Below, piece after piece: positions 1,387-1,534 of a DNA stretch of 1,547 bases. Origin of the DNA: Escherichia phage ECO95 1-6-1. Position 1 is the stretch's first letter. Every line of letters begins with the position of its first letter. Made by a program: the position numbers and the translations under genes. Below the pieces are notes generated by a model. The model did no database searches. It was not told where the DNA came from and saw nothing but the letters and a program-made list of their open reading frames with translations. Location: sequence record OR845860.1. The stretch is one strand, 5' to 3'.

Positions 1387-1495
1387 TATTTGATCATATG
1401 TAAGCTGTGAAAAACAGTTTTAGATAATAAGGAATATCTCAATTATTGAACATTTAGTGCGAATTATTTAGTACAAAAAGTGAACTTTTGATGAT

Positions 1496-1508
1496 CTTTC
1501 CCTAATCT
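1496..1508. repeat. Candidate terminal inverted repeat, transposase-proximal end
   Basis: Plus strand CTTTCCCTAATCT; its reverse complement AGATTAGGGAAAG pairs with 221..232. A GATC site (1493..1496) abuts its inner edge. Confidence 0.3.
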
Positions 1509-1515
1509 CACATAG

Positions 1516-1534
1516 GATCAGATCTCGTCTGATC
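1516..1534. repeat. Perfect 7-bp inverted repeat GATCAGA-N5-TCTGATC containing three GATC sites
   Basis: 1516..1522 gatcaga and 1528..1534 tctgatc are exact reverse complements, separated by tctcg. GATC sites at 1516..1519, 1521..1524 and 1531..1534. Lies just outside the proposed right end of the element. Function unknown. Confidence 0.5.

Follow-up and report, generated by a model that had tools for sequence, protein, structure and literature searches.

Conserved GATC sites in the insertion sequence ISEc1 and a possible link to Dam methylation in the ISAs1 family

Introduction

The window analysed here, a stretch of 1,547 nucleotides from Escherichia phage ECO95 1-6-1 (OR845860.1), holds a transposase gene and a crowd of GATC sites at the end upstream of it. 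Do these sites tie transposition to replication, or do they belong to DNA that the element merely lies beside? A reading made from the sequence alone had offered both answers. Control of transposition by Dam has its place in textbooks, although the elements in which it is known are few (IS10, IS50, IS903 and IS3). To our knowledge, the regulation of the element in the window, ISEc1 or H-rpt, is undescribed, and few IS families have received as little study as its own, ISAs1. Dam control is established for IS10, Tn5, Tn903 and IS3 (PMC4659465), and methylation of GATC by Dam is established in E. coli (PMC4417163). No report of a Dam link was found in the literature on ISAs1 or H-rpt, and the literature on yhhI, ydcC and ybfD yielded no dam-mutant, methylation-state or transposition results.

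The element in the window

Two features define the element.

214..1504, minus strand: ISEc1 (H-rpt), ISAs1 family, 1291 bp, delimited by BLAST to the K-12 copies and by flank divergence
224..1360, minus strand: transposase open reading frame, 378 aa (Pfam DDE_Tnp_1_assoc, E 5e-34; DDE_Tnp_1, E 7e-29)

Domains, size, ends and identity all place the element in the ISAs1 family as ISEc1 / H-rpt. Both Pfam transposase matches exceed the curated cut-offs, and the length of 1291 bp and the CAGGG ends (IRL TAGGGAAAGATC..., IRR CAGGGCAAGATT...) are those of the family, whose members measure about 1.2-1.5 kb. Matching genomes are annotated in RefSeq with an ISAs1-like element ISEc1 family transposase. 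All 5426 complete E. coli genomes searched contain matches to the window, in a median of five places per genome; identity ranges from 80 to 99% and is 95-99% in most of them.

The boundaries follow from a comparison of copies. BLAST against K-12 yhhI, ydcC and ybfL/ybfD gives homology from 213/214 to 1503 at 95-97% nucleotide identity, and the flanks of six copies part exactly at 1503/1504, directly after ...GATGATCTTTCCCT. At the terminal base, 1504, the transposase strand has T in place of the C usual in the family; the end of the element was set at 1504 by counting the family's terminal base. The element extends no farther than this. The three K-12 copies share the open reading frame, the ends and both internal GATC sites discussed below with the window copy, which differs from them in the T for C at its terminal base and in the joining of an nfrB-side flank to a flank of the RhsE type.

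The window copy shows no target-site duplication, since 204-213 and 1505-1514 form no direct repeat. A Salmonella relative (L088, 86% protein identity; 556-700 and 1838-1900) is inserted in the Shine-Dalgarno hairpin of another related copy and is flanked by a 10-bp duplication, ATATCTCCTG, a clean transposition footprint. Because this duplication is fresh, the ISEc1 group is or was mobile. We know of no report of H-rpt transposition in E. coli. The ISEc1-like copies in Serratia and Dickeya (L090, L091 and L092) lie not beside Rhs genes but among polysaccharide, O-antigen and capsule genes, with neighbours that encode a dTDP-sugar isomerase, Wza and glycosyltransferases.

GATC clustering at the transposase-upstream end

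A motif search finds exactly seven GATC sites in the window, at 172, 932, 1392, 1493, 1516, 1521 and 1531, and so bears out the count, the coordinates and the placing of five sites in 1392-1534 that had been read by eye. The site at 932-935 is the only one within the transposase open reading frame. The total is at chance level (7 seen against 7.6 +/- 2.6 in dinucleotide shuffles); it is the placement that is unusual. Five sites within 143 bp have P = 0.005 under uniform placement of seven sites and P = 0.019 in dinucleotide shuffles, and four within 45 bp have P = 0.002, so that the scan probability of the clustering at 1392-1534 is about 0.002-0.02. These five sites are not independent of one another, because 1516 and 1531 are opposite arms of one palindrome, with 1521 overlapping the left of the two.

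The sequence-only reading had called for a count in longer DNA and held that a similar density in the surrounding genome would speak against the cluster. The density is not similar: related E. coli loci totalling 73.5 kb have one GATC per 355 bp, and only 0.16% of their 143-bp windows reach five or more sites. The claimed concentration at the transposase-upstream end thus stands, as one of position and not of total number.

The cluster is composite. Two of its sites (1392 and 1493) lie inside ISEc1 and three (1516, 1521 and 1531) in the neighbouring DNA. One may ask whether any of them does anything: these could be ordinary GATCs in a decaying, immobile element next to a GATC-rich flank, with the comparative pattern described below as sampling noise. 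The window total, which equals expectation, fits such an account, as do the three of five sites that lie in the flank and hang on a single palindrome, and the many E. coli copies of ISEc1 that are pseudogenes. We nevertheless judge it improbable, in view of the close relative's fresh 10-bp duplication, which shows mobility, and of the conservation described below.

The flanks and the palindrome

The DNA on either side of the element has its own history.

1..213, no strand: left flank, nfrB side, with one GATC at 172-175; it matches two related loci (L001 and L002) immediately upstream of nfrB
1505..1547, no strand: Rhs-associated spacer outside the IS; an identical flank borders ydcC in O157:H7 and further strains (L006 and L007)
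1516..1534, no strand: palindrome GATCAGA-tctcg-TCTGATC with 7-bp arms, which holds the GATCs at 1516, 1521 and 1531

In those strains ydcC marks the RhsE locus, and the stretch 1440-1547 is contiguous in 1235 E. coli genomes. At the nfrB-Rhs locus of L001, the 43 bp equivalent to 1505-1547 lie 268 bp farther from the IS end. The two window flanks derive from separate Rhs loci: the left one is the nfrB side and the right one is of the RhsE/ydcC type. This combination is contiguous in none of the 5426 complete E. coli genomes searched. With flanks from different loci, the window probably arose either by recombination between copies or as a chimera assembled through the repeat.

The possibility that the cluster came with the host flank and not with the element holds for 1516, 1521 and 1531, as copies diverge at 1503/1504, and fails for 1392 and 1493, which lie inside the IS. 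It could still be supposed that all five sites, flank included, work as one unit at this locus, for instance as a SeqA-binding patch that prolongs hemimethylation, or that the flank is a degenerate older ISAs1 repeat (reverse complement CAGGGGGAACGATCAG). Three GATCs do fall within 19 bp, 12-30 bp outside IRL; the reverse complement of the flank loosely resembles the family's inverted repeat; and the junction is found in 1235 genomes. In the same flank of O157:H7, about 200 bp beyond the ydcC IRL, solo IRL tips GATGATCTTTCCCTG and TGATCTTTCCCTG stand in tandem (L006, about 5255-5290), and another, CAGGGAAAGATC, precedes by about 75 bp the IRL of a Salmonella element that lacks GATC (L093, about 520-550). 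These tips appear to be left over from past insertions or rearrangements.

The copies themselves make such a unit very improbable. The flanks of K-12 yhhI, K-12 ydcC and L001 are unrelated to that of the window and carry no GATC, and the palindrome is missing from all three, so the flank GATCs are not a property of the element and adjoin it only at loci of this type. A reading of 1505-1547 as a degenerate ISAs1 terminal repeat was not established, as the resemblance is loose, requires indels and is backed by no alignment. The inverted repeat 166-177/1529-1540 was rejected as the pair of IS ends: it has only 10 of 12 matches, its halves lie in flanks from different loci, and comparing copies puts the ends firmly at 214 and 1504.

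Terminal repeats in ISEc1 and its relatives

The first of the two intrinsic sites had been described as abutting the inverted repeat. It lies instead inside it, at positions 9-12 from the tip.

1481..1504, minus strand: IRL, the repeat proximal to the transposase start, TAGGGAAA-GATC-ATCAAAAGTTCA, also written TAGGGAAA-GATC-ATCAAAAG; GATC 1493-1496 takes positions 9-12
214..237, plus strand: IRR, the distal repeat, CAGGGCAA-GATT-ACGAAAGCCCGC; GATT takes positions 9-12 (222-225)

Only one end of ISEc1, within the candidate transposase-bound terminal sequence, thus carries the Dam tetramer: IRL has GATC and IRR has GATT. The IRR, CAGGGCAA-GATT-ACGAAAG, overlaps the transposase stop codon. Coding does not forbid a GATC there, because a TGA stop would allow one.

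This asymmetry was followed through 80 ISAs1-family loci, one genome per species, to which four Enterobacterales relatives (66-86% protein identity) and nine plasmid-borne members were added; the counts exclude six interrupted or ambiguous loci (L008, L013, L021, L030, L078 and L084). Hosts were assigned a Dam status by taxonomy and general knowledge, not genome by genome, and the host orders were checked against taxonomy. On that assignment, IRL positions 9-12 read GATC in 14 of 21 distinct elements of Dam hosts and in 0 of 41 elements of non-Dam hosts (Fisher P = 4e-9, relatedness ignored). The count becomes 15 of 21 when the Moellerella IRL (L099, CACGGCAAGATC) is registered by hand. By chance, GATC would occupy one fixed tetramer in about 0.4% of sequences, against the 15 of 21 seen, a contrast hard to square with functionless sites.

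The carriers belong to Enterobacterales, Vibrionales, Aeromonadales and Alteromonadales. Enteric carriers come from Escherichia, Salmonella (two lineages), Serratia, Dickeya, Cedecea, Klebsiella (two, including ISKpn31) and Moellerella; the others come from Aeromonas (ISAs12), Vibrio, Oceanisphaera, Zobellella, Photobacterium, Psychrobium and Psychromonas. Opposite a GATC-bearing IRL, wherever the IRR could be located, its tetramer is GATT, TATT, GAGC, ACGC or GCGC and never GATC. The family consensus of the terminal repeat, drawn from about 65 members, is CAGGGCAA-TCGC-ATGAAAA, and elements of non-Dam hosts have equal tetramers at their two ends (TCGC/TCGC, ACGC/ACGC, CCGC/CCGC or AATC/AATC).

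Exceptions occur among Dam-type hosts. The IRL site is missing and the second site, described next, is kept in Shewanella (L036, GGTC), V. thalassae (L019) and a Citrobacter plasmid (L094); both sites are missing in one Salmonella element (L093) and in Fukatsuia (L100). In ISKpn9 (L101) the IRL has a GATC at positions 15-18 rather than 9-12.

A second GATC at a candidate promoter

The second intrinsic site lies within TGATCAAAT, about 35 nt upstream of the transposase ATG.

1388..1400, minus strand: CATATGATCAAAT, candidate extended -10 of the transposase promoter, which contains GATC 1392-1395
1367..1386, minus strand: RNA hairpin CUCCUUG-cauaaa-UAAGGAG that sequesters the Shine-Dalgarno sequence, predicted fold -7.6 kcal/mol, z = -3.0

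On the transposase strand the candidate promoter region reads CATATGATCAAATACTCCTTGCATAAATAAGGAGAACAAAATG. The 13-mer CATATGATCAAAT recurs identically in the transposase promoter region of IS10, at IS10 bp 63-75, in an outer-end sequence that was checked and is 100% identical to R100. The IS10 counterpart of the whole of TGATCAAAT is identical to near-identical; the candidate -10 comes without a good -35 and with C at -11. With the start of IS10 RNA-IN at bp 81, TG-a-TCAAAT (1388-1396) reads as a candidate extended -10 and its GATC as the counterpart of the pIN Dam site. Over 16 ISAs1 elements the site has the consensus T-R-T-GATC-W-n-A-T, which is compatible with TG-n-TCWnAT. Because a generic sigma-70 scan calls no transposase-strand promoter between IRL and the ATG, the proposed promoter stands on two supports only, the IS10 match and this conservation. 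Another candidate -10, TATGAT, with AAAACT or TAAAAC as the -35, was dropped for its poor -35 and because the hexamer is not conserved in relatives.

Two published observations are weak external hints of an ISEc1 promoter. An RpoS-holoenzyme SELEX study has a weak peak between yhhH and yhhI (PMC5493296), and in long-term stationary phase ydcC and ybfD are induced alongside the transposases of IS1, IS2, IS3 and IS5 (PMC4032248).

By analogy with IS10, transcription is predicted to start at about 1381, in the 5' arm of the hairpin. The 3' arm holds the Shine-Dalgarno sequence, and a hairpin of equivalent shape and differing sequence occurs in most of the 16 relatives. Fold-back protection against read-through translation has been described for IS10 and IS50. 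A search of Rfam returned only a chance match, to SCARNA4.

On the opposite strand, an antisense promoter-like site (TTTCCA-N18-GATAAT, 1298-1327, plus strand) is followed by a terminator-like structure, formed by the hairpin 1367-1386 and then TATTT (plus strand, 1298-1392). These signals could specify an antisense transcript, about 55 nt long, that would cover the ribosome-binding site together with the start codon and recalls RNA-OUT of IS10; they are consensus matches only, in a window whose promoter-like matches are at chance number.

Conservation of the two sites and its causes

Both GATCs stand out in an otherwise variable region. In the Escherichia/Salmonella/Serratia/Dickeya series (74-86% protein identity), the aligned 5' region has 154 columns, of which only 47 do not vary, and unvarying stretches of at least five columns number just two, AAGATCA in the IRL and TGATC in the candidate -10. 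Both positions are kept down to about 41-55% protein identity, where the remaining 5' region is unalignable, which again tells against sites without function. Elements of Dam hosts have GATC once per 54 nt in the 5' region against once per 384 nt in the coding sequence; in elements of non-Dam hosts the figures are once per 275 nt and once per 228. The concentration of GATC at the transposase-upstream end thus extends to the family, and does so in Dam-type hosts only.

Vibrio, Oceanisphaera and Zobellella elements (L011, L012 and L018) carry, in the stretch 36-66 nt upstream of the start codon, two extra GATCs that directly precede the -10 GATC, at spacings of 12 and 16 nt (GATCgntttgayGATCa...tgtGATCat), a spacing that would suit cooperative SeqA binding.

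Such conservation need not involve methylation. The GATCs could simply be part of the sequence that transposase binds in the IRL and of a promoter or operator motif, with the host association owed to shared ancestry; the second site could even be an autoregulatory transposase site, both containing GATCA. The shared GATCA is consistent with this explanation, and neighbouring bases are conserved as well, in AAGATCA and T-R-T-GATC-W-n-A-T. Several elements of Dam hosts lack the IRL site. Most carriers, moreover, fall in one gammaproteobacterial clade (bootstrap 76%), and because they share one large clade the raw Fisher probability overstates the evidence. Even so, the IRR, to which the same transposase has to bind, never has GATC opposite an IRL that does, although in ISEc1 a TGA stop would permit it, and in non-Dam hosts the tetramers are equal at both ends. 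The 7-fold excess of GATC in the 5' region over the coding sequence, found in relatives from Dam hosts, is absent from those of non-Dam hosts. We therefore hold a constraint independent of methylation to be unlikely, all the more given the losses that follow.

Two lineages with Oceanospirillales hosts, one of Halomonas and Cobetia and one of Endozoicomonas, sit inside the carrier clade. The Halomonas and Cobetia elements are nearest to the GATC-bearing elements of Vibrio, Oceanisphaera and Zobellella (57-59% identity, bootstrap 65%), and the Endozoicomonas element is the outgroup of Salmonella L093 and the ISEc1 group (bootstrap 100%). Both lineages lack GATC at either site and retain the surrounding motifs. 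Their IRL tetramer is ACGC, ATGC or AATC; at the second site Halomonas has tgtGGTCAt against tgtGATCAt in Vibrio, and Endozoicomonas has tGTCTTATAC against GATCTTATAC. That GATC alone is broken, in both places at once, while the motifs are kept is hard to reconcile with constraint on the motifs themselves. In Halomonas alkaliphila, nanopore methylome data give three motifs, and GATC is not among them (bioRxiv 10.1101/2023.11.13.566931). Counted by lineage, both sites were lost in two of two non-Dam lineages against about one of 14 Dam-host lineages, an estimate with P of about 0.03. The Fukatsuia element and ISKpn9 lie on distant branches, and because their nearest relatives live in non-Dam hosts they fit a recent arrival.

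A model of Dam-coupled control

Given the positions of the sites, the boundaries of the element, the asymmetry of IRL and IRR, the conservation and the host association, Dam-coupled control is the best-supported reading of 1392 and 1493. Dam control had been raised as a possibility for the whole cluster. It gains support for these two sites, whose conservation tracks host orders with Dam, SeqA and MutH, and loses it for 1516, 1521 and 1531, which belong to the flank. Somewhat better than even, in our estimate, is the chance that the two intrinsic sites reflect a Dam coupling of the IS10/IS50 kind while the three flank sites are an unrelated neighbour. Because relatives keep both GATCs only in bacteria that methylate GATC, ISEc1 jumping is probably tied to replication.

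The mechanism may be pictured as follows, with the promoter, its start site and its methylation sensitivity predicted from sequence. Full GATC methylation would silence both the weak transposase promoter and the IRL end. Once the replication fork has passed, both sites would be briefly hemimethylated, and hemimethylation would then allow a burst of transposase and make the IRL end usable, so that any transposition would be coupled to replication. Read-through transcripts entering from outside would fold into the hairpin and be blocked in translation, whereas transcripts from the element's own promoter, starting within the 5' arm, would escape the block and be translatable.

The proposed arrangement resembles that of IS10 in several respects. 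Each element has one terminal repeat with GATC and one GATC at a promoter -10 (a candidate in ISEc1), within the same 13-mer, CATATGATCAAAT. Each also has a DDE_Tnp_1 fold, an RNA structure able to block read-through translation and a weak promoter, which in ISEc1 is only predicted. The two differ in layout: IS10 has its end GATC in the inside end, far from the promoter, and both ISEc1 sites are at one end. The transposase family and the terminal repeat (CAGGG...) of ISEc1 are also different, and its antisense RNA is only putative. In IS50 the -10 holds two GATCs, as does the inside end. In IS10/Tn10, a member of the IS4 family, Dam exerts its control at the -10 of pIN and at the GATC of the inside end (Roberts et al. 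1985, summarised in PMC4659465). ISEc1 is likewise comparable to IS50/Tn5, IS903 and IS3 in having GATC in the transposase promoter (a candidate in ISEc1) and/or one end and in residing in Dam hosts (PMC4659465), and differs from them in the number of sites, their placement and the families involved.

At the level of the family, we propose more tentatively that ISAs1 elements track the epigenetic environment of their hosts. An asymmetric GATC pair may be kept in bacteria with Dam and SeqA, the exact tetramers may decay elsewhere while the surrounding motifs are kept, and recent arrivals such as ISKpn9 and the Fukatsuia element would be without the pair. This wider proposal we regard as possible rather than probable.

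Significance

ISEc1/H-rpt is present in 5426 of 5426 complete E. coli genomes and lies beside Rhs toxin loci, and its relatives lie beside O-antigen and capsule genes. For this element the analysis supplies a concrete hypothesis that is cheap to test: it names two GATC sites and predicts both where transcription starts and how translation is blocked. Insertion sequences that lose their Dam sites on entering hosts without Dam provide a natural experiment. A known principle would be extended to a new family, and nothing is overturned. If the proposal is true, the near-identity of TGATCAAAT with the IS10 promoter would point to deep homology between ISAs1 and IS4 or to striking convergence, and replication-coupled Dam control would be an ancient, selected trait of a whole and otherwise uncharacterised IS family.
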